A stretch of 64,000 nt of DNA. It comes from a virus. Below the pieces are notes generated by a model. It saw nothing but the letters and a program-made list of their open reading frames with translations. It was not told the origin of the DNA and searched no databases. Below are positions 2,512-64,000 of the stretch, piece by piece; the stretch's first letter is position 1; the number at the start of each line of letters is the position of its first letter. Made by a program: the position numbers and the translations under genes. The stretch lies in IMG/VR virus record IMGVR_UViG_3300006149_000007. One strand, written 5' to 3'.

Positions 2512-3603
2512 ATGATTGAAGGAGATTTTTTATATTGTTTTAACAATTCTAAAAAAGATGATAGAAATATACTTACAAAAAAACAGTTATCAGAATTTAT
2601 AGATCAAAACTATTTTAATGGAATTGTAAAAGAAATACACACAGGAACAGCGATTACGAGGTACGACATCGAGGTAAAACCAAAGGCAATAAAATATTTT
2701 TTGACATTAGAAAGAGAATTTAATGCTTTTTTTGATTCTGGAAATTGCCGAGTATTTCAGAAAGGAAAATATGTGTGCGTAGAAGTCCCAAATAAATATA
2801 GAGGAATATATGGTTTTGCGGATTGCATTTCTTCTTTGCGAACTATTTCAGACCATAAAAACAAGTTGTACATTTCTATAGGAGAAGCGCTTGACGGAAG
2901 TAACATCAATTATGATTTGGTACAAATGCCACACTTACTTGTAGCAGGACAGACGGGAAGTGGAAAGAGCGTATTTCTGCATAATGTAATACTTTCTTTA
3001 CTTTTACAATATAATGCAGACGAATTGAATTTGCTACTGATTGACCCGAAAGAGGTTGAATTTAGCTTTTATAGAAATGCTCCGCAAGTAAGAGAAGTTG
3101 TAACAAATGGAGACAGAGTGGTAAGGAAGATAAGGGATATGTGTGATGAAATGGATAACAGATATTCTATATTTACTGAAAAGTCAGTGAGGGATATTTC
3201 TTTATTCAATGAAATTTCAGAAGTTAAAATGCCAAGAATAGTTGTACTTATTGAAGAATTAGCAGATTTACTAATATCGCAAGGGAATGAGGTTATTGCA
3301 GACATCACAAGGCTTATAGTAAAGGCTAGGGCTTGTGGCATACATATTATACTTTCCACACAAAGACCAGAAGCGGAATTTATGACAGGAAAATTGAGAA
3401 GTAATTTTCAATGCCGAGTAGCATTTTCAACATCAGATGCAAGAGATAGTCAAATGATTTTAGGAAGAAAAGGTGCTGAAAAATTAAAAGGAAAAGGGGA
3501 TGGGATTTTCAGAACAAATAACGGGGCACAAAATACAAGGTTTCAATCAGCGATGATTACAGAGAAAGAAATTAAAAAAGCAGTAAAAAAACTGTGCGAA
3601 TAA
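2512..3603 (+). CDS. FtsK/SpoIIIE-family DNA translocase ATPase
   Basis: Walker A GQTGSGKSV, Walker B IVVLIEELADL, and STQRP / R-finger region. Confidence 0.85.
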   Translation: MIEGDFLYCFNNSKKDDRNILTKKQLSEFIDQNYFNGIVKEIHTGTAITRYDIEVKPKAIKYFLTLEREFNAFFDSGNCRVFQKGKYVCVEVPNKYRGIYGFADCISSLRTISDHKNKLYISIGEALDGSNINYDLVQMPHLLVAGQTGSGKSVFLHNVILSLLLQYNADELNLLLIDPKEVEFSFYRNAPQVREVVTNGDRVVRKIRDMCDEMDNRYSIFTEKSVRDISLFNEISEVKMPRIVVLIEELADLLISQGNEVIADITRLIVKARACGIHIILSTQRPEAEFMTGKLRSNFQCRVAFSTSDARDSQMILGRKGAEKLKGKGDGIFRTNNGAQNTRFQSAMITEKEIKKAVKKLCE

Positions 3604-13326: not shown

Positions 13327-13497
13327 ATGAGAATGAAAATGGAATTTGAAACAGACGATTGCGAACATTGCCCTTGTTTAAGGCGTTTTGCAGATGAAGA
13401 ATACGGTTGTTTCTTTGACAGAGAAAAGAAAATAAACAGTTGGGATTTAGATGAAATAAACAAAGAATGCCCGATAGCAACATCTGTTGTTAGATGA
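13327..13497 (+). CDS. small Cys-rich protein between the phosphatase and the kinase
   Basis: ATG lies 5 nt after GGAGGTG. Contains CEHCPC...C...C. Confidence 0.45.
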   Translation: MRMKMEFETDDCEHCPCLRRFADEEYGCFFDREKKINSWDLDEINKECPIATSVVR

Positions 13498-13510
13498 AAG
13501 TAGGTGCTGT

Positions 13511-15199
13511 ATGCCAATAAAATTTGACACCACAACCCGAATGCCATTAACAGAGGGCGGCGAGGGTTACATATACGAATACAACGGAAAAATCATAAAG
13601 ACTTTCAAGCCGAACATTGACATAGCGGCAAAGGAAAGAAAAGTAAATACCCTGATGAAAACAGCACTTCCTAAAGCGGTTATAACGCCCATAGACACGG
13701 TTTTAGATATGTGTGGTAAGTTTACAGGCTACTGTATGGAAAAGGTCAGTGGAGAGGAATTTAAGCGGTTATCGAACCGAAAATTTGTGACCGCAAACAA
13801 TATCACGACAAAGGATATTTTGGGGTTGATTGTCAAGATTAAGGCGGTACTGGCAGAAATACACAAACAAAATATTTATGTCGGGGATTTGAACGACCAG
13901 AACATTTTATTTGATACCGCCGGAAACATCTATCTGATTGACTGCGACAGTTGGACGGTTGGAAGTGATAAATGTACCGTTGCTATGGATATGTTCAAAG
14001 ACCCGCATTTGAAAGCAGATAATTTCAACGCCGATACCGACAATTACGCCTTTATGGTGCTTGCGTGGAAGTCACTCACAAGGGTGCACCCATTCGGCGG
14101 AACGGTTGAACCGGATATGCCGATTTTAGATAGGATTGTAAATGGAATATCGGTTATCAGTAGGCAGAATGTGAAGCTGCCAAGACTAGCAAAGGAATGG
14201 AAAGGCTTTTCGCCTGACCTTGTGTCTGAATTTAAGGCGGTATTTGAGGGCGGCGTTCGGACATTATCGGGCAATATGGAAGATATGCTTGCGAACCTTA
14301 CACAATGCAAAAAGGACAAGGAATACTATTATAGCAAGTTTTCTACTTGTCCATACTGCGACAGTAACGCACGGGTCAATAAAAAGCCTGTATCACAAGG
14401 AATTGTCGGCGGTTTGAAACTGTATGCAATCTATGATTGTACAAAGATTAAGGCGGTGTTTGATAGATATACATATCTGGATAATGCGGGGTATGTTCAT
14501 AACGGAAATCAGATAACAGGATTTTTCAATATGGCAAGATACCATTACACAAAAGATGGAATGGTTGTCTTGGAAATTCCAGACTGCATTACATTCCATA
14601 ACAACAAGGACTATCAGATTGACAAGAAATATAAGTCTGCAATCGAAGTCTGCGGAAACAAAATTTACTACATTTCCACAAAGAACACGCTGACACAACT
14701 TGAAATTATGCCGAGCGGTAACGGAATAAAGAATATCTGCAAAGTCAGCAACACAGTGTATTTTGCGGTCAGTGGGGATAATTACTGCGTTGTCAACTAC
14801 TACGCAGGAAAGATTATTGTCAATATCAATGGCACGAATACGGTAATTGACTATGATTCGGATATTGTGAACTATGGCATACACCATGACGAGGTGTCGG
14901 GAAAATGGCTGATTGCCTTAGAGGATAGCAAGGGAAAATTTAATACATTTGTTATCAATGGCGGCACAGTGGAATATCAGACGGGCGCAATCAAATACGC
15001 CTGCCAGCTTAATTGTCCTTGCATTTACAACTCGAATATTTTTATCCCAGTTGACGGAAAGATTAGGGGGTATTCCTACAAGAAATCGTTGTTTAAGGAT
15101 TTTGAGTGTGGCGTTGTTTCCGAGGAAAGCAAGCTGATTAAAGAGAAAAACCGCTTTGTGATTGTGAATTTGGAGAATGTTTATTATTTGGAGAGTTAG
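13511..15199 (+). CDS. Ser/Thr protein kinase-like protein with a ~350-aa C-terminal beta-rich domain
   Basis: Catalytic loop YVGDLNDQNILF, metal-binding YLIDCDSW, and an N-terminal Gly-rich region plus IIKTFK lysine. Confidence 0.75.
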   Translation: MPIKFDTTTRMPLTEGGEGYIYEYNGKIIKTFKPNIDIAAKERKVNTLMKTALPKAVITPIDTVLDMCGKFTGYCMEKVSGEEFKRLSNRKFVTANNITTKDILGLIVKIKAVLAEIHKQNIYVGDLNDQNILFDTAGNIYLIDCDSWTVGSDKCTVAMDMFKDPHLKADNFNADTDNYAFMVLAWKSLTRVHPFGGTVEPDMPILDRIVNGISVISRQNVKLPRLAKEWKGFSPDLVSEFKAVFEGGVRTLSGNMEDMLANLTQCKKDKEYYYSKFSTCPYCDSNARVNKKPVSQGIVGGLKLYAIYDCTKIKAVFDRYTYLDNAGYVHNGNQITGFFNMARYHYTKDGMVVLEIPDCITFHNNKDYQIDKKYKSAIEVCGNKIYYISTKNTLTQLEIMPSGNGIKNICKVSNTVYFAVSGDNYCVVNYYAGKIIVNINGTNTVIDYDSDIVNYGIHHDEVSGKWLIALEDSKGKFNTFVINGGTVEYQTGAIKYACQLNCPCIYNSNIFIPVDGKIRGYSYKKSLFKDFECGVVSEESKLIKEKNRFVIVNLENVYYLES

Positions 15200-26536: not shown

Positions 26537-27667
26537 ATGGGAAAGGATTTAAGAGGAAAGGAGTTAGGAGTTGGCATTTGCCAAGTAAAAAGTGGCAAAT
26601 ATGTTGCAAGGTTTACGAACCGCAACGGGAAACGCATTAAAAAAGTATTTGATAAGCTGCAAGAGTGCAGACAATGGCTTGCGGATGCACAGTTTGAGGA
26701 TGAACACGGGAATGTATTGCAAGGAGAGAATCCGACAGTGGACGCATGGTATCATTACTGGATTGATAATGTAAAGGGCGATAACATCCGATTTAACACT
26801 CGAAGAAATTATAACGAGCGTTATGACAAGAACATAAAGCCGCTGATTGGGGATATGCTTTTAAAGGATGTAAAGCCGTTGCATTGCCAGAATGTGCTTA
26901 ATCAAATGGCAGATAGATACGCAAATTCAGTCATTGAACATAGTCGCCTGGTTATGTGGATGATGTTTGACAGTGCAGTTGAAAATGAATTGATTGCCAA
27001 AAATCCAGTAACAAAGAGTGTCAAATGCACAAGTGGACGAAAGTCAAAGGAAATGCGGGCATTGACGATTGAAGAACAGAAGTTATTTCTTGAGACCGTT
27101 AATGGGACAAGCAATTACAACCAGTATGCTTTGCTTTTGCAGACGGGGCTACGAACAGGGGAAATGATAGGATTGCGGTGGTCGGATGTGGATTTTGAAA
27201 ATCGGGTATTACATATCCGCCGCACAATGGAGTACCGACACTCTGTAGGAGAATGGAGAATCGGGGAGCCTAAGACAAAGAACAGCGTTAGAGATGTGCC
27301 ATTGACACAAGAGGCGGTTGATATTCTAAAAAACCAGAAAGAAAAGCTAAAAACACTGAAAGTCAGACCGATAGAGTTTAAGGATATCGTTTTCCTCTGC
27401 CGGGATGGTACGCCAACCAAGAATAGTGCGTATGATACAAAGTTATTCTATTATTGCGACAAGGCAGGAATACCGAGGTTTTCCATGCATGTTTTAAGAC
27501 ACACTTTTGCTACCAGGTGCATAGAAGGTGGTATGCGTCCAAAGACATTACAAACAATATTAGGACATTCAAGTATAGGAATTACTATGAACTTGTATGT
27601 TCATGTGACGGATGATGAAAAGGTAAAAGAAGTACAAAATATTGAAAAAATACTTAAAATCATCTAA
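26537..27667 (+). CDS. int: tyrosine site-specific integrase
   Basis: Catalytic Arg in LLLQTGLRTGE, HVLRHTFATR (HxxR), and LGHSSIGITMNLYVH (His and Tyr). Confidence 0.9.
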   Translation: MGKDLRGKELGVGICQVKSGKYVARFTNRNGKRIKKVFDKLQECRQWLADAQFEDEHGNVLQGENPTVDAWYHYWIDNVKGDNIRFNTRRNYNERYDKNIKPLIGDMLLKDVKPLHCQNVLNQMADRYANSVIEHSRLVMWMMFDSAVENELIAKNPVTKSVKCTSGRKSKEMRALTIEEQKLFLETVNGTSNYNQYALLLQTGLRTGEMIGLRWSDVDFENRVLHIRRTMEYRHSVGEWRIGEPKTKNSVRDVPLTQEAVDILKNQKEKLKTLKVRPIEFKDIVFLCRDGTPTKNSAYDTKLFYYCDKAGIPRFSMHVLRHTFATRCIEGGMRPKTLQTILGHSSIGITMNLYVHVTDDEKVKEVQNIEKILKII

Positions 27668-42570: not shown

Positions 42571-42642
42571 GGCGATATAGCCAAACGGTCAAGGCGGCAG
42601 TCTGCAAAACTGCTATTATCAGTTCGATTCTGATTATCGCCT
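42571..42642 (+). tRNA. tRNA-Cys (anticodon GCA)
   Basis: Acceptor GGCGATA/TATCGCC. Anticodon arm GCAGT-CTGCAAA-ACTGC. T-arm ATCAG-TTCGATT-CTGAT. D-loop has GG. The discriminator is U, as expected for Cys. No CCA is encoded. Confidence 0.9.
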
Positions 42643-42747
42643 TTATAACGGACTAGACAAAGCTAGTCGAAAAGCAAAAAACTCCGTAACTTGCCTGTCC
42701 GTTATTCAAATAAATTTACGGAGAGAAAGCATTGCGGAGGTGCGAAT

Positions 42748-43782
42748 ATGGATTTTAGAAGCTTATTTATAGACAAAGATAAAATTGTAATGGCAAATAT
42801 GGAACTGGGAGTTGCACTCAACAGCCTTGACGAAGCAATAGTGCTTAATCAGTTAAATTACTGGATTGAACGCAATAAAGACGCAAATAGGAATTTCCGA
42901 GACGGTCATTACTGGGTATATAATTCATACGAAGCGTGGAAAAAACAAGATTTCCCTGTTTGGTCTGCAACAAAGATTAAACGGATATTTACAAGCCTTG
43001 AGGGGAAGGGGATTGTTTTATCTGCAAATTACAATAAACTTGCCATTGATAAAACAAAGTGGTACACGATTGATTATGACAAATTAAAAAAGTTTATTGA
43101 AGAATACTCGAAAGGTCAAAATGAAACACCGACAGACCAAGATGAAATATCGAAAGACGCTGATGACCAACCGATAGACCAAAATGACCAGACGTTAGAC
43201 CAAAGTGAAAGAGCATTACCAGATACTAACTACAGAGATTATTCTACAGAGAATACTAACAGAGATTTACATACAGATACTACAAAGGATAAAACATTAT
43301 CTAACGATAATGGAGAGGTAAAAACATCTTCTTCTGAAAACCGAAAGAAGATGTCCGTACCAAAAACCGCCTTAGAAAAATATTTCGGCAAAAAAGCAGA
43401 TGAACAGGACATGATGAAGCGGCTTGCCGATATCTGCATATCCAACTATGACGAGGAAACCGCAAAAGATATATTTGAAACCATAGAGCATTATTTTAGG
43501 CGATATACTGACAAGACGGGGCTGATACACCCAATACTGAAAGATGAAACTCTTATACGCATAACAGAGAAAATGGATTGCTTTTATGATAGCGAATATT
43601 CACATTTTGAACGCCTGATAGGACAAGACCATGCTTTTATGAAAATGGTTGACATGTTCTTTGACGGAGATTTTGGGGCGGTTAAGGGAAACGAAACGAA
43701 TTATCATCTCCCTGCATTTATGACAGACGGAGTTTTGAATCGATTAGGGCAAAGGTTGTTTGAGTTAGGGGAGGTAGAGTGA
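42748..43782 (+). CDS. second replication initiator / replisome-organizer-like wHTH protein
   Basis: ATG follows GCGGAGGTG. LNQLNYWIERN...HYWVYNSYEAWKKQDFPVWSATKIKRIFTSLEGKGIV. The gene contains internal DQ-coding iterons. Confidence 0.55.
   Translation: MDFRSLFIDKDKIVMANMELGVALNSLDEAIVLNQLNYWIERNKDANRNFRDGHYWVYNSYEAWKKQDFPVWSATKIKRIFTSLEGKGIVLSANYNKLAIDKTKWYTIDYDKLKKFIEEYSKGQNETPTDQDEISKDADDQPIDQNDQTLDQSERALPDTNYRDYSTENTNRDLHTDTTKDKTLSNDNGEVKTSSSENRKKMSVPKTALEKYFGKKADEQDMMKRLADICISNYDEETAKDIFETIEHYFRRYTDKTGLIHPILKDETLIRITEKMDCFYDSEYSHFERLIGQDHAFMKMVDMFFDGDFGAVKGNETNYHLPAFMTDGVLNRLGQRLFELGEVE
43131..43205 (+). repeat. Iteron-like (T/C)AGACCAA(A/G) / TGACCA repeats inside the second initiator gene
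   Basis: cAGACCAAg, aTGACCAAc, TAGACCAAA, aTGACCAGa, TAGACCAAA. Confidence 0.55.
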
Positions 43783-53765: not shown

Positions 53766-54158
53766 ATGACATTACCAATCGTTATCAGCCTTGCAGGAGT
53801 GGCGATAAGCCTTGTATCTGTAAGTGCTATGATTTATTTCAACAAAAAGAATGGAAAACATACCGATGATGAAGATTTGAAAGAACAAATCAGAGAAAAA
53901 ATGAACGACTTAAAAGAGCGTGAACGAGAGAGAGCGAAAGACATTGAGGACAGGACAAGGGAAAATACGATTATCAATACAAAACTTGACAATATCAATT
54001 TTTCCAATCAGGAAATCAAAGACAGGCTAAATTCTGCAATAAAGCAGATACAAGACCACGGCGACCGACTTATTAAAGTTGAGGAAAGTGTGAAATCTGC
54101 TCATCATCGGTTAAACACCCTTGAGGAGCGTATTGAGGAAAAGGAGGACAAAAAATAA
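53766..54158 (+). CDS. membrane-anchored coiled-coil protein (XhlA-like)
   Basis: N-terminal TM LPIVISLAGVAISLVSVSAMIYF plus a coiled coil. Directly precedes the holin. Confidence 0.4.
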   Translation: MTLPIVISLAGVAISLVSVSAMIYFNKKNGKHTDDEDLKEQIREKMNDLKERERERAKDIEDRTRENTIINTKLDNINFSNQEIKDRLNSAIKQIQDHGDRLIKVEESVKSAHHRLNTLEERIEEKEDKK

Positions 54159-54421
54159 TGGATATAATGCAAATCGGAAGCGTAACAGCTATTGTTGTGA
54201 TAGCGTATTTAATCGGACTTGGAGCAAAGAACATTTCCACGATCAAAGACGAGACGATCCCTGTTATCGTCGGCGTATGCGGCGGTATCTTGGGCGTTGC
54301 CGGAATGTTCGTCATGCCTGATTTTCCGGCACATGACATTCTGAACGCTATCGCAATTGGAATTGTCAGCGGACTTGCAAGCACTGGCGTAAATCAGGTA
54401 TGGAAACAGGCTAAGAAGTAG
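54158..54421 (+). CDS. holin (LL-H / phage_holin_1-like)
   Basis: 87 aa, three hydrophobic segments, charged C-terminus QVWKQAKK. Confidence 0.6.
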
Positions 54422-55329: not shown

Positions 55330-55593
55330 ATGACAACAAGAGAGTTTGAAGATTTCTTGGAAAAAGAAATTATGACAGAGGAAGATAAAAAGAATATCTT
55401 TGCCCCGCCGCTTGAACCGCAGATTGCATTAAACATTCTGATTGAACATTTTCTCGGAAAAGACTGGTACACTCCTAACCCAATCGGAGTAAAGCAAGTG
55501 AATACAGAAGCGGTGCATGAAATTCTTAACAAATACCCAAAGAAAAAAGGATTACTTGAAAGGCTGGTGGAATTTTGGAAAAGAAAACAGTAA
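55330..55593 (+). CDS. hypothetical protein
   Basis: 87-aa ORF. Confidence 0.45.
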   Translation: MTTREFEDFLEKEIMTEEDKKNIFAPPLEPQIALNILIEHFLGKDWYTPNPIGVKQVNTEAVHEILNKYPKKKGLLERLVEFWKRKQ

Positions 55594-58829: not shown

Positions 58830-59492
58830 ATGTTAGTAGAAATTATAGGAAAGAGAAATGAAGAGAGGCTTATAACGACAAGCCTAAAGGTGGCAGAAGT
58901 TTTTGAAAGGGAGCACAAAGATGTTCTCGAAAGTATCAGAAATCTCACAGCGGAAAAGTCCGCAGCCAAATTCTTCAATGAAACAACATACAAAAGCAGA
59001 GGAAAAGAATATCCAATGTATGAAATAGATAGGGACGGATTTTCTTTGCTTGTCATGGGGTTTAATGGAGAAAAGGCGTTGAAGTGGAAATTGAAATACA
59101 TAGACGCTTTCAACGCAATGGAAAACGAACTGAAACGCATTTATACCGAACGTCAGCAATGGCAGATTGAACGTGACAAGGGCGTTGTTATCCGGCATAT
59201 CCTTACAGACACAATTAAGATGAAAATTGCAGACAGCCCGCATAAACGTTTTGCATATCCAAACTATACAAATTTAATTTATCGGGCTTTGTTTGATAAG
59301 ACGGCAAAGGAACTTGAACAAGAATATGGCGTTAAATCCAAAGAGAACCTTAGAGATTTCTTTACAGGAGAAGACTTATCAAGAGTTCAAAGCATGGAAA
59401 TGCTTATTTCAAGTCTTATTAACTGCGGTTGGGGATATTCAGAAATAAAAGAATTTGTTCAGAACAATACAAGAAAAATGATTGAATCTTAG
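58830..59492 (+). CDS. Rha-family regulatory protein (moron between the chaperone and the tape measure)
   Basis: ITTSLKVAEVFEREHKDVLESIRNL...YEIDRDGFSLLVMGFNGEKALKWKLKYIDAFNAME. Confidence 0.7.
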   Translation: MLVEIIGKRNEERLITTSLKVAEVFEREHKDVLESIRNLTAEKSAAKFFNETTYKSRGKEYPMYEIDRDGFSLLVMGFNGEKALKWKLKYIDAFNAMENELKRIYTERQQWQIERDKGVVIRHILTDTIKMKIADSPHKRFAYPNYTNLIYRALFDKTAKELEQEYGVKSKENLRDFFTGEDLSRVQSMEMLISSLINCGWGYSEIKEFVQNNTRKMIES

Positions 59493-59539: not shown

Positions 59540-61573
59540 ATGGCGACAATAGAAACTTTGGATATACAAATAAACGCTTCTACTGATAAAGCCTCTAAGG
59601 CAATCGACAAACTTGCAACCGGAGTAGGACATCTTGCAGACGCAATGAATAAGTTTCAATCGGTCAAAGCAGAAAATTTTACTACCGTTAAAAATGGAAT
59701 CGAAAAACTTGGACAAACAAATACCGAAAATTTATCAAAACTTGGAAGAGCTTTAAAATCTCTTGGTAAGGGCATGAGTTCGTTTAATGCTGTGTCATTC
59801 GGTGAAGACAAGTCAATCAGCATAAATAATATGGCGAGTTCTTTAGATAAGATAGCCTCCATTCCTGACATTCCGATTGCTAAAATAAAAGTTTTGCCTC
59901 AAGCAGCAAAAAACATATCAAAATTTTGCCAAGAGATAAGCAAGATTAATCAAGTTACGTTTGATTCAACGAAAATTTCTGGAATTATTAGTCCTTTATC
60001 TGGATTAGATACAGAGAAGTTAGTTCCAATAACAGCGAAACTTCCTAGCATTGCGAACAATTTATCTAAATTTTATTCAAAGATAAGTCAAACCAACATA
60101 GTTGATTTTGATATATCAAATCTTACAAGTTTAATAACAAAACTCGGAAAAAAATCAGGGGACATATCTTCAATAGAGAAATCCGCTTCAAAATTACCTA
60201 CTATCGGTTATCACTTATCTAATTTCTATTCCCAGATAAAGAAGTCAGGAACGATTAATTTTGATATAGCAGGATTATCAAAATTGATAACAGGTCTTGA
60301 AAAAGTTTCAGGGGAAACAAGTTCTGTAGAAACGATTGCGGCGAAACTTCCTATTATCGGAAGTAATTTATCTAAATTTATTAGAGAAGTAAATAAAGCT
60401 GGAAAAGTTACTTTTGATATAACAAGTCTTGCGAATTTGATTTCAGGTATCGGAAAATTAGAAAGCAAAACAGCAACGACATCAACAACAAATTTGCCTA
60501 GAGTAAGTAAGGATTTACAAAAATTTATCAAAGGATTGAATGGATTAGAGAAAGTTACCTTTGATGTAGCAGGACTTTCAAATTTGGTAAATTCTATATC
60601 GAAATTAGGGGGCGGTTCTGTTTTATCTGCTGTTGAAAATATTCCGCGCATTACAGCAGCATTAAAGGATATGATGACAGAATTATCATCAGCTCCAAGG
60701 GTATCAAGGAATATTATTGATATGACAAACGCCCTTGCCAGATTAATAAGTCAAAGCAGGTCAGCGTCGTCAGCAAGCGAAAAATTCAGTTCTTCAATGA
60801 ACCGTACAAGTTCTTCGGTTTCAAAGTCACATCAACAGCTTAAAAACCTGACTTTAAATCTGAAATCTGTAACTCAGCAATTATTGGCGGCTTCAGGAAT
60901 ATATTTAAGTATTTATGGAGCAGTAAGAGGTTTCAAAAGTGCCGTTCAAAGCTCTATGGATTACGTAGAGGACCTGAACTATTTCAATGCTGCATTTGGG
61001 CAAGTGGCAGAAAGCGCAGATTTATCAAACTGGAAAGAAGCTGGGTATAATTCGGCAACTGCATACTACAATTCTTTCGCAGAAAGAGCCGAACAGATAA
61101 CGCAGAAGATGACAGGATATCAGGTATCGCAAAGCGGAATGCTTCTATCTACTGGCGAAAAGAATCTTGGTATAAATCCAAGCCAATTAATGAATTATCA
61201 GGCTGTATTCGGGCAGATGTCATCATCTATGGGGACCACATCAGAAAATGCTTTGCTTCTGTCTGATGTTTTAACCAAAATAGGTGCTGACCTTGCTTCT
61301 GTGAAAAATATGGACTTTGATAAGGTCTGGAATGATATGTCAAGTGGCCTTGCTGGTATGTCGAGAACGCTTGACAAGTATGGCGTAAATATCCGAAACG
61401 TCAACTTACAGCAGAAATTAAATGAATTAGGGATTCAGGCAAACATAACGAAGCTGAACCAGAACGAAAAAGCGCTTTTGAGAACTATTATTTTGCTTGA
61501 TACTACACGTTACGCGTGGTCTGATATGTCGGAAACGATAGACAATAGCAATAAGCTATTACTTGTCGCCTAA
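59540..61573 (+). CDS. tail tape measure protein, 5' exon (ORF as read; proposed splice donor after 61539)
   Basis: Long helical protein with repeated LS(K/N)F...VTFD(I/V)..L..LI modules. It ends abruptly in ...DMSETIDNSNKLLLVA*. Confidence 0.75.
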   Translation: MATIETLDIQINASTDKASKAIDKLATGVGHLADAMNKFQSVKAENFTTVKNGIEKLGQTNTENLSKLGRALKSLGKGMSSFNAVSFGEDKSISINNMASSLDKIASIPDIPIAKIKVLPQAAKNISKFCQEISKINQVTFDSTKISGIISPLSGLDTEKLVPITAKLPSIANNLSKFYSKISQTNIVDFDISNLTSLITKLGKKSGDISSIEKSASKLPTIGYHLSNFYSQIKKSGTINFDIAGLSKLITGLEKVSGETSSVETIAAKLPIIGSNLSKFIREVNKAGKVTFDITSLANLISGIGKLESKTATTSTTNLPRVSKDLQKFIKGLNGLEKVTFDVAGLSNLVNSISKLGGGSVLSAVENIPRITAALKDMMTELSSAPRVSRNIIDMTNALARLISQSRSASSASEKFSSSMNRTSSSVSKSHQQLKNLTLNLKSVTQQLLAASGIYLSIYGAVRGFKSAVQSSMDYVEDLNYFNAAFGQVAESADLSNWKEAGYNSATAYYNSFAERAEQITQKMTGYQVSQSGMLLSTGEKNLGINPSQLMNYQAVFGQMSSSMGTTSENALLLSDVLTKIGADLASVKNMDFDKVWNDMSSGLAGMSRTLDKYGVNIRNVNLQQKLNELGIQANITKLNQNEKALLRTIILLDTTRYAWSDMSETIDNSNKLLLVA

Positions 61574-61802
61574 TATGGCAACATATTAGTGAAAATCGAG
61601 GTATTAAGCGGGAACCCTAAACCGAAAGGCATGGGAATCCGAACCGAAGGCTGTGCAAAGCGCAGTCAGGGGCAACGCATAGGCAGCGAAAAGATATAAT
61701 CTGCCCACGAGACCTCGACAACCTTATAGGTTGAAAAGATATGCTGACCTTATGGGAAACCATAAGAAATAAAGGATAAAAAGCCTTTATGATAACAATG
61801 TG
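61540..61802 (+). ncRNA. group I intron (IA-like, no homing endonuclease ORF)
   Basis: P2 TAATATG-GCAA-CATATTA. P3 61596-61602 / 61712-61718. P7 GTCAG / CTGAC. P8 AACCT-tat-AGGTT. J8/7 AAAAGATAT. P9 CTTATGG-GAAA-CCATAAG. A U.G pair at the 5' splice site and a terminal G. Removing it restores the frame. Confidence 0.65.
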
Positions 61803-64000
61803 AAATCAACCGGCAAATCAGCTTCGTCTTTTACAAGCAAATTTTAGCAACTTAGGGCGGACCATAGGAAATATATTCCTGCCAATCGTAGCAAAAGTAT
61901 TGCCATATCTCAATGCAGTAGCAATAGCTTTGCAAAGACTTGCAGAAAAAATTGTGTTGCTGCTAGGCTTCGAGGATTTTGACTGGGGCGGCTTAGGCAA
62001 AAGCGGAGGTACTACCTCTGACGCATTGAGCACTATCTATGACGAAACGGAAAATGTTTCTGACGCAATGGGCGACGCAACGAAGAAGACGAAAGAGTTT
62101 CAAAATCAGCTCCTAGGCTTTGATGAAGCTTACAAATTATCCGAGCCGGCAGAAGATACATCATCTTCTGCAACGGGAGCAGGATTAAGCGGACCAGATA
62201 CCGCAGCTTTGGATGCAGCGTTTAAAAAGATTGCAAACGAATATCAGGCGGCATGGACAGCGGCTTTTGAAAAAATGGAACAGGAATCAACAGCGATTGC
62301 GGATAGGATAATCAGTGCCTTTGAACGTGGCGATTATAAAGGTATCGGAACATACATAAGCACAAACATCTCTGACGCATTAGCTTCTATCAACTGGGAT
62401 TCTGTTTATCAAGGTGCAAGGAATTTCGGGACTGGTCTCGCCGAATTTATGAATGGGTTAATCACACCGGATTTGTTCGGAAATGTCGGAAAAACGATTG
62501 CAGGGACTTTGAATACAAAACTTTATGCGGTGTTATCTTTTGGGCAGACATTTGATTTTACGAATCTAGGAGAATCCATAGCAGCAGGAGTGAACAACTT
62601 CTTTGCGACGTTTGATTTTGGAAGTCTGGCGGAAACATTAAATGTTTGGGCGAAAGGTATATTAAACACTGCTATTACAGCGCTTGATAATATTGACTGG
62701 GGAATGATAGGGAAGCAAATAGGAACTTTCCTAGCAGATATTGACCTGTTTGAAATTGGATTTAAAGTAGTGCAAGCTTTATGGAAAGGTATTAATGCTG
62801 AATTTGATTTGCTTGTTGGAGCGTTTGAAAAAGCGCCGTTAGAAACTATAATAGTATCTTTTGCGACAATGCCAAAGTTATTAAAGGCGATTATGACAAG
62901 CAAATTTATAACAGGATTCAAGAAACTCGCAAATGGAATTAAATTAGTTTCTGGTGCATTAATAGGCAATCAAACTGCTATTACTGCTCTTTCAAGTCAA
63001 TATCCAAAATTATCAAAAGCAATTAATATTGCTAAAGATTCTTTTAGAGCATTAAGAACAGGAATTTCAAACGGAAATGTTTTCAATGGTGTAAAACTTG
63101 CGATAGAAAATCTTAGAAATAATTTAACCGGATTACAGAAAGGTGCAATTACGGCAGTTGCGGGATTTGCAGAATTTAAAGTTATATCAAATACCTTTGA
63201 GGGATTAATTTCAGGAAATGAAAATTTATTAGAGGGCATAATGAAAATAGGCGGAGTCGCAGCAGCAGCGGCAGCAGCAATGTATACAGCTCTTGGACCA
63301 GCCGGGCTTGCGATAGCGGCAGTTATAGGTGCTGTTGGTGCAGTAAAAGGAATAAGTGACGCATTTGAAGAAATAAGAATTAAGGAATTTGGAGAAATAA
63401 TCAAAAATGCCATGACAAATCCGGGAGGCGTCCCGTTAAGCGAAATTACTTCTCAATTTGCAAACGCTTTTTCTGAAGCTGCTAGTGGATTCGATATAAT
63501 AAAAGAAAAATCTTCTGAAATGGACAGTGTTCAAAAAAATGTTGAAAGTACATGGACGGAAATTTATAAAATACAGGAGGCAATGGATAATGGAGTTCTT
63601 TCTGTTGAAGAAGGAAAACAAAAGCTATCCGATTTGTTCTCAGAACTTGCAACATTAACAGAAACAAAATTTTCCACAATGAACACAGTTATCATGTCTG
63701 TTTATGGGGAAGGAGGCTCTTTTCACAATGCTTTAGATAGTATAGGTGCTGATACTGAAACTGCTATTGATACAATGATATCCTATGGATATCAGAATAG
63801 TGAAAGAGCAAAAGAAATAGCAAAAGAACTTTCGGGAATGAATATAGATTCTGATGAATACAAAAGTTTAGTTTCTGAACTTGCAACATTAACAGGGGAG
63901 ATGTCGAAGTTTGAGCAAGCAACAAGTGATTTTGCTTATGATATGAACTCTTTACAAGGAAAAATTTCTTATGAAGAAATTTTTCCAAATGGAGAATTTG
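61803..64000 (+). CDS. tail tape measure protein, 3' exon (runs off the window end)
   Basis: Frame open from 61804 to 64000: NQPANQLRLLQANFSNLGRTIGNIFLPIVAKVLPYLNAVAIALQRLAE... is the typical TMP core. It has no start codon of its own. Confidence 0.75.

Follow-up and report, generated by a model that had tools for sequence, protein, structure and literature searches.

Sequence evidence for a compact, endonuclease-less group I intron in the tape measure gene of a temperate siphovirus-type phage

The 64,000-nucleotide (nt) stretch of viral DNA analysed here (IMG/VR record IMGVR_UViG_3300006149_000007; hereafter the window) carries a gene for a tape measure protein (TMP) that is broken into two open reading frames (ORFs) by a 263-nt insert. 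An earlier reading of the same letters, made by a model without database searches (the sequence-only reading), had attributed the break to a group I intron lacking an endonuclease. Our analysis supports this view: the TMP gene of this temperate siphovirus-type phage appears to be split by a group I intron, likely of subgroup IA type, that contains no endonuclease gene, and we put the probability that the insert is an intact group I intron whose excision yields the full TMP at about 0.93. This conclusion is carried by 11 homologues that run without a gap through the junction, by a match to the group I intron model RF00028 and by strong covariation in two independent sets of relatives.

The upstream ORF of the TMP gene (59540..61573, plus strand, 677 amino acids (aa)) ends at the TAA at 61571-61573. 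A second frame, which reads NQPANQLRLLQANFSNLGRTIGNIFLPIV... and stays open up to the end of the window, starts at 61804, directly behind an in-frame TGA (61801-61803). The stop and the new frame are present as the sequence-only reading had described them, and so is the lack of a start codon in the second frame: its earliest start-type codon is TTG 61900, 32 conserved codons precede this TTG, and gene callers placed the start of the downstream 'gene' at about this position in public assemblies. Excision of exactly 61540-61802 (263 nt) yields ...YAWSDMSETI-NQPANQLR... in a single frame (here and below, a hyphen marks the exon junction), with position 61539 joined to 61803 giving ...LLDTTRYAWSDMSETI-NQPANQLRLLQANF.... 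The insert interrupts the codon for Ile667 of the TMP; the predicted ligated-exon junction is ...GAAACGAU-AAAUCAACC... and the predicted tryptic peptide that crosses it is YAWSDMSETINQPANQLR.

Uninterrupted homologues of the gene define the insert precisely. In a blastn search of phage genomes, the 'minor tail protein' gene of Dulem virus 39 (PP511791) aligned in two pieces, one to either side of the gap, and the spacing of the two pieces in this uninterrupted gene is shorter by exactly 263 nt. The spliced product aligned to the Dulem virus 39 TMP without a gap at the junction (...TRYAWGDLADTINQPANQMRLL...; 45% identity over 689 aa, E = 4e-168), and ten more homologues, found in genome bins and in IMG/VR contigs (L003-L011 at the junction position), were also continuous, so that an alignment with intact TMPs, which had been suggested together with the sequence-only reading, was gapless in 11 uninterrupted homologues. 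In these homologues the exon-1 block closes with ...TI or ...TL, and the DNA runs straight through the junction point, for example, GATACAAT AAACCAGCC. Six contigs of independent public assemblies carry the identical 463-nt junction region, which excludes both an assembly error and a private mutation; the contig is present in samples JGI 3300006217, ERR2560689, SRR2065413 and SRR6833898. Exon 2 reaches its end after 1,248 codons in the longer contig L159, where the spliced TMP comes to 1,914 aa and has no other break.

Two PHROG families, 1535 ('tail length tape measure protein', E = 1.3e-34) and, more strongly, phrog_28918 (E = 1.5e-76), matched the spliced segment, both in one stretch over the junction, whereas neither Pfam nor NCBIfam found a TMP domain on the spliced junction segment. 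The label 'canonical TMP core' that had been given to the downstream frame is not reproduced by Pfam, although the PHROG tape measure families do match the spliced protein. Together, the gapless homologues, the restored frame and the PHROG matches spanning the junction indicate that the two ORFs are one tape measure gene with a 263-nt insert. The gene sits after major-tail-like and chaperone-like ORFs. Relatives turned up in gut-derived assemblies, namely an Anaeroplasmataceae bin, an Acetatifactor bin, and lemur and rodent faecal viruses.

A covariance-model search had also been suggested as a check. Over 701 nt (61300-62000), RF00028 matched 61548-61766 along its full model length (positions 1-253) with 32.5 bits and E = 1.9e-6, a match that lies below the gathering score of 50 bits; scaled simply to the 64-kb window, its E-value would be about 2e-4. 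No other Rfam family, group II introns included, matched the insert stretch (none other at E < 6, no group II intron at E <= 10). When nine related loci (34 kb in all) were scanned with RF00028 by E-value, nothing was reported at E <= 0.01, though two of these loci, L002 and L012, hold clear relatives of the intron; the model is therefore insensitive to this intron sublineage. An nhmmer profile of 23 relatives, from which the window had been excluded, produced a single match in the window, at 61592-61799 (E = 5.5e-53). The minimum free energy (MFE) of 61530-61810 was -81.5 kcal/mol, against -54.4 +/- 4.6 kcal/mol for shuffled sequences (z = -5.9), and none of 200 shuffles was as good. As the sequence-only reading had it, the element holds no endonuclease ORF: no plus-strand ORF of at least 40 aa lies entirely inside the 263 nt, into which the upstream TMP ORF extends for 34 nt, and the minus strand has only a trivial ORF of 48 aa. 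Neither the window nor the 22-kb L159 locus yielded a second copy of the intron.

The secondary structure (Table 1) was assessed in two alignments built with MAFFT and not fitted to the structure. A1 comprises 15 diverse family members from J6/7 to the 3' end, and A2 comprises the window and 23 close relatives (24 sequences) at full length. In A2, 95.1% of the helix cells were paired, compared with 28-41% when the partners were slid by 1-3 columns; 37 of the 51 pairs had changes on both sides, and the covariation score of 0.515 (0.163 in shuffles) was reached in none of 500 shuffles. A1 gave a similar picture, with 95.8% of cells paired, compensatory changes in 17 of 29 pairs and none of 500 shuffles reaching its score. 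In A2, P4 and P5 together were 94.6% paired, with 4 of 7 pairs compensatory, and P6 with P6a (helices 3-5 of that analysis) was 91-100% paired, with compensatory changes in 6 of 8 pairs. P1, including its U.G pair, is invariant in seven introns that occupy the same site in other phages (see below), the P1 extension is 98.5% paired and covaries, and P2 is 100% paired among the same-site introns, with compensatory changes in three of seven pairs. At the 3' end, the tail ...GAUAACA..UG was found in all 14 A1 relatives and in 18 of the 23 A2 relatives, and, counting the window, ...UG precedes the 3' splice site in 34 of 39 aligned members of the family. A 10-nt string, GAAAAGATAT, occurs twice in the intron, at 61688-61697 in the P7.1 loop and at 61733-61742 across J8/7 and the first bases of the P7 3' strand; most of the 23 A2 relatives conserve the two occurrences.

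All of the complementary strings listed in the sequence-only reading exist in the DNA (TAATATG/CATATTA, TCGAGGT/ACCTCGA, CTGTGC/GCGCAG, GTCAG/CTGAC, GGGCA/TGCCC, AACCT/AGGTT, CTTATGG/CCATAAG and GTCG/CGAT). Its guide with the U61539.G61565 wobble, its terminal G61802 and its P2, P3, P8 and P9 were upheld by the relatives, as was the CTGTGC/GCGCAG hairpin, which corresponds to P6a. Its P7 did not survive. The proposed pairing of GUCAG 61665-61669 with CUGAC 61744-61748 shows no compensatory change, and one of the pairs it implies is missing from all but 1 of the 24 A2 sequences. U61745 covaries with A61675 (U to C together with A to G) and not with A61668, and, read directly, the stretch equivalent to GUCAG is not complementary in those members of the wider family in which U61745 is C. 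In the revised structure, G61665 closes P6a, and UCAG 61666-61669 forms the 3' side of the internal loop between P6 and P6a, followed by the P6 3' strand (G61670-61671) and J6/7. The revised P7, with its bulged C61676, is 100% paired across the 15 diverse sequences of A1, with compensatory changes in three of six pairs, and invariant in A2; the pair beside the bulge, A61675-U61745, is A-U in eight and G-C in seven sequences of A1. The same P7 is implied by the Rfam alignment, in which the consensus GACUA/UAGUC stands against GCAUA/UAUGC in the window. The pair G61677-C61744, invariant in 39 sequences, is probably the guanosine-binding pair of P7, which we take it to be by analogy with G264-C311 of Tetrahymena.

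The extra helix that had been placed between P7 and P3' does exist, but in a shifted register: GGGCA/UGCCC is 59% paired in A2, without compensatory change, as opposed to at least 97% for GGCAG/CUGCC. This covarying hairpin, P7.1, is the only extra one between P7 and P3' in the window intron, and some relatives have a second stem nested in the P7.1 loop. With a single extra hairpin at this place, the intron is likely of subgroup IA, either IA1 or IA2 being possible.

Several observations weigh against an intact, functional intron. A search of the whole window at the Rfam gathering threshold reported a tRNA and an int-alpA RNA only, and not the intron, in keeping with the sub-threshold score given above. 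On direct reading P10 is weak, being limited to A61803-U61564 and A61804-U61563, P6 is merely 2 base pairs long, and the fourth position of P5 is a U.U. The evidence consists of DNA sequence. Finally, an intron without an endonuclease cannot home by itself, and for this reason the route by which it arrived can only be inferred. Most of these points, namely the missing endonuclease gene, the Rfam score, the weak P10 and P6 and the kind of evidence, would suit a decayed relic that no longer splices, with the TMP either a pseudogene of a defective prophage or a protein that the phage makes do with in two fragments. We consider such decay unlikely. The window keeps 86 of the 87 positions that are conserved in at least 22 of the 23 relatives, and the sole exception, C61687, is a loop base; all helices are intact, and both exons are open over 1,914 codons. 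Moreover, the sequence is unchanged in six assemblies, with intact structural genes alongside, and exon 2 opens with 32 codons that are conserved among homologues yet have no start of their own.

Even less probable are two separate proteins, that is, an N-terminal tail protein and a C-terminal TMP starting at TTG 61900, with the 263 nt serving as a structured intergenic RNA. Gene callers and several GenBank records do annotate such pairs as two genes; however, all 11 uninterrupted homologues encode a continuous protein at the exact point of the break, the conserved codons at 61804-61899 precede any start codon, the spacer is a group I intron by both model and covariation, and two-gene annotations elsewhere overlie the same intron family. 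That another element (a group II intron, a small transposable element, an intein or a programmed frameshift site) mimics the group I fold by chance has nothing but the Rfam score in its favour and is of negligible probability, as a group II intron would be longer than 263 nt (600 nt or more would be expected) and neither an ORF nor an Rfam group II match at E <= 10 is present, the insert has no in-frame coding potential for an intein, the homologues lack the 263 nt entirely, which speaks against a recoding site, and covariation in A1 and A2 supports a pseudoknotted group I core.

Table 1. Exons, intron and structural elements in the window (A2, alignment of the window and 23 close relatives; A1, alignment of 15 diverse family members).
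Feature	Positions	Strand	Sequence or extent	Remarks	Basis
TMP exon 1	59540..61539	+	666 codons and the first 2 nt of the ATA codon	Last base U61539	ORF list, homologues
TMP exon 2	61803..64000	+		Runs off the window	
Group I intron	61540..61802	+	263 nt	No endonuclease ORF	
P1	61536-61541 / 61563-61568 (span 61536..61568)	+	CGAU-AG / guide UUGUCG	U61539.G61565 wobble	MFE fold
P1 extension hairpin	61544-61549 / 61555-61560	+	AAUAGC / GCUAUU	Six pairs, inside the P1 loop	
P2	61571..61588	+	UAAUAUG-GCAA-CAUAUUA	Opens with the TAA stop of the exon-1 frame	
P3	61596-61602 / 61712-61718	+	UCGAGGU / ACCUCGA	6/7 pairs covary in A2; covaries in the wider family	
P4	61609-61612 / 61638-61641	+	CGGG / UCCG		Rfam alignment, A2
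P5	61615-61617 / 61633-61635	+	CCC / GGG	CC-GAAA-GG tip at 61622-61629	Rfam alignment, A2
P6	61644-61645 / 61670-61671	+	CC / GG	1/2 pairs compensatory (A2); internal loop separates P6 from P6a	
P6a	61651-61656 / 61660-61665	+	CUGUGC / GCGCAG	5/6 pairs compensatory (A2)	
P7	61675 and 61677-61681 / 61740-61745	+	A and GCAUA / UAUGCU	C61676 bulged	
P7.1	61682-61686 / 61701-61705	+	GGCAG / CUGCC	14-nt loop; 97-100% paired; 4/5 pairs compensatory in A1 and A2	
P8	61720-61724 / 61728-61732	+	AACCU / AGGUU	UAU loop; 91-93% paired; 4-5 of 5 pairs compensatory	
J8/7	61733-61739	+	GAAAAGA	Followed by the P7 3' strand UAUGCU (61740-61745); aligned to Rfam consensus AAGAUAUAGUC	
P9	61749-61755 / 61760-61766	+	CUUAUGG-GAAA-CCAUAAG	96% paired; 6/7 pairs compensatory (A2)	
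P9.1	61770-61775 / 61784-61789	+	UAAAGG / CCUUUA	96.5% paired; 6/6 pairs compensatory (A2)	
Conserved tail	After P9.1, up to 61802	+	GAUAACAAUGUG	Ends in terminal G61802	

Splicing of the intron is predicted from these features. Both exon 2 and the intron begin with A, which leaves the boundaries ambiguous by one base when DNA is aligned; the rules of the U.G pair and the terminal G settle them between 61539 and 61540 and between 61802 and 61803, the sites named in the sequence-only reading, at which both the frame and the homologous protein are restored. The steps below follow the established chemistry of group I introns. The precursor mRNA would fold into the P1-P9.1 core, in which the guide UUGUCG (61563-61568) is predicted to pair with the end of exon 1, setting U61539 in the U.G wobble. 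A free guanosine held at G61677-C61744 of P7 would attack after U61539, and the terminal G61802 would next take the site that the free guanosine had occupied. The 3'-OH of exon 1 could then attack after G61802, joining the exons as ...GAA ACG AU-A AAU CAA CCG..., and the ligated mRNA would encode one TMP of 1,914 aa with ...SETINQPANQ... at the junction. A ribosome entering the unspliced intron would be expected to halt after 11 codons, at the TAA in P2.

A search of IMG/VR with a pattern composed of the intron tail and the NQPANQ codons retrieved seven more contigs (L152-L158) with introns at the TI-NQPANQ site. These previously uncharacterised introns share the insertion point with the window intron, and their P1 extension, P2 and 3' tail are homologous to those of the window; neither the guide UUGUCG nor the U.G pair varies among them or differs from the window. 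The exon junction ...ACGAU-AAAYCARCC is the same in the six that were mapped (all but L155, whose exon 1 tblastn did not find) and is kept even in L153, whose TMP is just 37% identical to that of the window over the exon-1 segment compared. The same-site introns range from 297 to 1,278 nt in length. Five mapped long ones (L152, L153, L154, L156 and L157) are 1.25-1.28 kb, and the three of these that were read (L153, L156 and L157) have an ORF of about 260-340 aa in the P5 loop. That of L157 matches GIY-YIG (PF01541) and NUMOD1 in Pfam, and the ORFs of L153 and L156 are similar. In contrast to these long introns, the window intron has no endonuclease ORF, and the 297-nt intron of L158 has no ORF either. 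It is likely, judging from these sequences, that TI-NQPANQ is a recurrent homing site and that the window holds an endonuclease-less version of the intron there. A related intron of 318 nt (L012 1699-2016) interrupts the TMP gene of L012, whose product is 65% identical to the window TMP, at a different site between ...SGLAG and MSRTLDKYG, which indicates that TMP genes of this family have been hit at more than one position.

The window intron and the same-site introns differ in their cores. Intron nt 3-81 of the window are 90% identical to L153, a same-site intron that bears an endonuclease. The same-site introns have a P4-P7.1 core of the type UCGGUG...ACCGA / GAGCGUAG...UACGCC, to which the window shows only a weak match (69-72% over short pieces), its own core being of the type CGGG / ACGCAUAG...UAUGCU. 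Over nt 54-259 the window intron is instead 82% identical to L132, an intron of another gene with a flanking exon unrelated to this TMP site. The difference between the window core and the same-site core may reflect recombination or divergence. We tentatively suggest, at a little under even odds, that the window intron is a natural chimera in which the targeting module of the same-site introns (P1, P1 extension, P2 and J2/3) has been combined with a core from another sublineage.

Beyond the same-site introns, the insert belongs to a wide family. Its 3' 70-120 nt resemble approximately 100 phage records at 70-89% identity, and in annotated records the match falls between the two halves of a split gene (TerL, portal, DNA polymerase or TMP). 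A pattern derived from P6-P7 retrieved more than 120 IMG/VR loci, many of them 70-82% identical to intron nt 53-260. Examples are found in the terminase of Streptococcus thermophilus phage 2972 (orf3/orf4), the portal gene of S. suis phiJH1301-1 (ORF42/43) and the DNA polymerase gene of Alicyclobacillus MMB025, and, within TMP genes, in 'Arcanobacterium' phage TPWB06, Sextaecvirus staphylococcal phages and Clostridioides difficile phiCDIF1296T (phi024/phi025). These introns share with the window intron the P7-P7.1-P3'-P8-P9-P9.1 domain and a 3' end of the form ...GGAUAAAAAGCC...GAUAACA..UG, whereas they lie in other host genes or at other TMP sites, their P1 and P2 differ, and their P4-P6 domain differs in part. 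In most cases the record carries no intron annotation; the split-gene loci (L002 1128-5089, L021, L022, L024 1-1072, L017, L019 and L016) are annotated as two genes or unannotated.

The literature amply documents introns in phages, where they interrupt genes of the terminase, lysin, polymerase, capsid and tail. The classical phage introns of subgroup IA lie in an essential phage gene, with a stop codon early in the intron, and those of T4 td and nrdB, Twort orf142 and the S. thermophilus lysin gene have the IA architecture described in the manner of Michel and Westhof, with an extra helix between P7 and P3'. The window intron, compared by description, resembles these in general architecture. 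Foley et al. 2000 is cited in PMC5601072.

TMP genes are themselves known hosts. Group I introns occur at three TMP sites (TMP-IVS1, IVS2 and IVS3) in prophages of the Bacillus cereus group, including B. anthracis lambdaBa01; they belong to subgroups IA1 and IA2, and several have no complete endonuclease gene (Tourasse & Kolsto 2008, PMC2504315). The window intron is like them in its probable subgroup IA type and its location in a prophage TMP gene, and like several of them in its lack of an endonuclease gene, whereas host clade and TMP family differ, the comparison being made by description. At one site, TMP-IVS3a and IVS3b combine differing cores with an all but identical P1 and guide (PMC2504315), a pattern that is mirrored by the window intron and the introns of L152-L158. 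In the Vibrio phage ICP1, a TMP intron carries an HNH endonuclease, and its splicing was demonstrated by RNA sequencing and reverse-transcription PCR (Barth et al. 2023, PMC10448857); the same authors call TMP a 'frequently interrupted gene' (PMC10448857). In both phages the TMP gene is split, but that of ICP1 is rejoined at the RNA level, whereas splicing in the window is predicted; the ICP1 element has an endonuclease gene and the window intron has none, and this comparison too is by description. TMP introns have thus already been published, and the window intron is a new case of this known kind; it is not surprising and opens no new question.

The surroundings of the TMP gene have several features of their own. 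In exon 1, the translation of window 59540-60700 (residues ~165-360) contains about five tandem repeats of approximately 45 aa each, of the form KLPxIxxNLSKF...V(T/D)FDIxxLxxLIxxL. A gene for a Rha-family regulator (PF09669, E = 3.6e-29) lies at window 58830-59492, between the tail-chaperone-like ORFs and the TMP gene, which is an unusual location; three further genes of the Rha, P22_AR_N+ORF6C and Bro-N+ANT types follow at L159 17526-19856, about 1.5 kb past the TMP gene and beyond two small genes. Within the head-tail connector module, small genes at L159 5791-6054 and 4619-4882 (about window 55330-55593 and 54158-54421) have precomputed Pfam matches to the Tad8 family (PF25189) and to a holin-like protein (PF16079). 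At window 42571-42721, an Rfam match to int-alpA RNA (40.1 bits, above its gathering score) begins four bases after a tRNA (67.5 bits) and overlaps the start of the ORF at 42691-43782. Of the upstream ORFs at 26537-27667, 2512-3603 and 13487-15199, the first encodes a tyrosine integrase (PF00589, E = 2e-31), which suggests that the left end of the prophage lies near 26.5 kb; the other two encode an FtsK/SpoIIIE ATPase and a protein-kinase-like product.

In summary, the two 'genes' that flank the intron (677 aa and a truncated call of 1,205-1,215 aa) should become one TMP gene of 1,914 aa, and the same joining of genes applies to the records of TPWB06, Sextaecvirus, phiCDIF1296T, phiJH1301-1, 2972 and MMB025. 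If the split is left uncorrected, predictions of tail length that are based on TMP length will be wrong. Group I introns are known to tend towards conserved stretches of essential phage genes, and the window supplies one more example. In addition, the same-site introns, with or without a GIY-YIG endonuclease and with two kinds of core, form a small natural system for investigating intron retargeting and endonuclease loss. Should the window intron indeed be a chimera, TI-NQPANQ would be a homing hotspot at which recombination swaps intron cores and leaves the guide module in place, and this would explain the presence of an endonuclease-less intron at the site.

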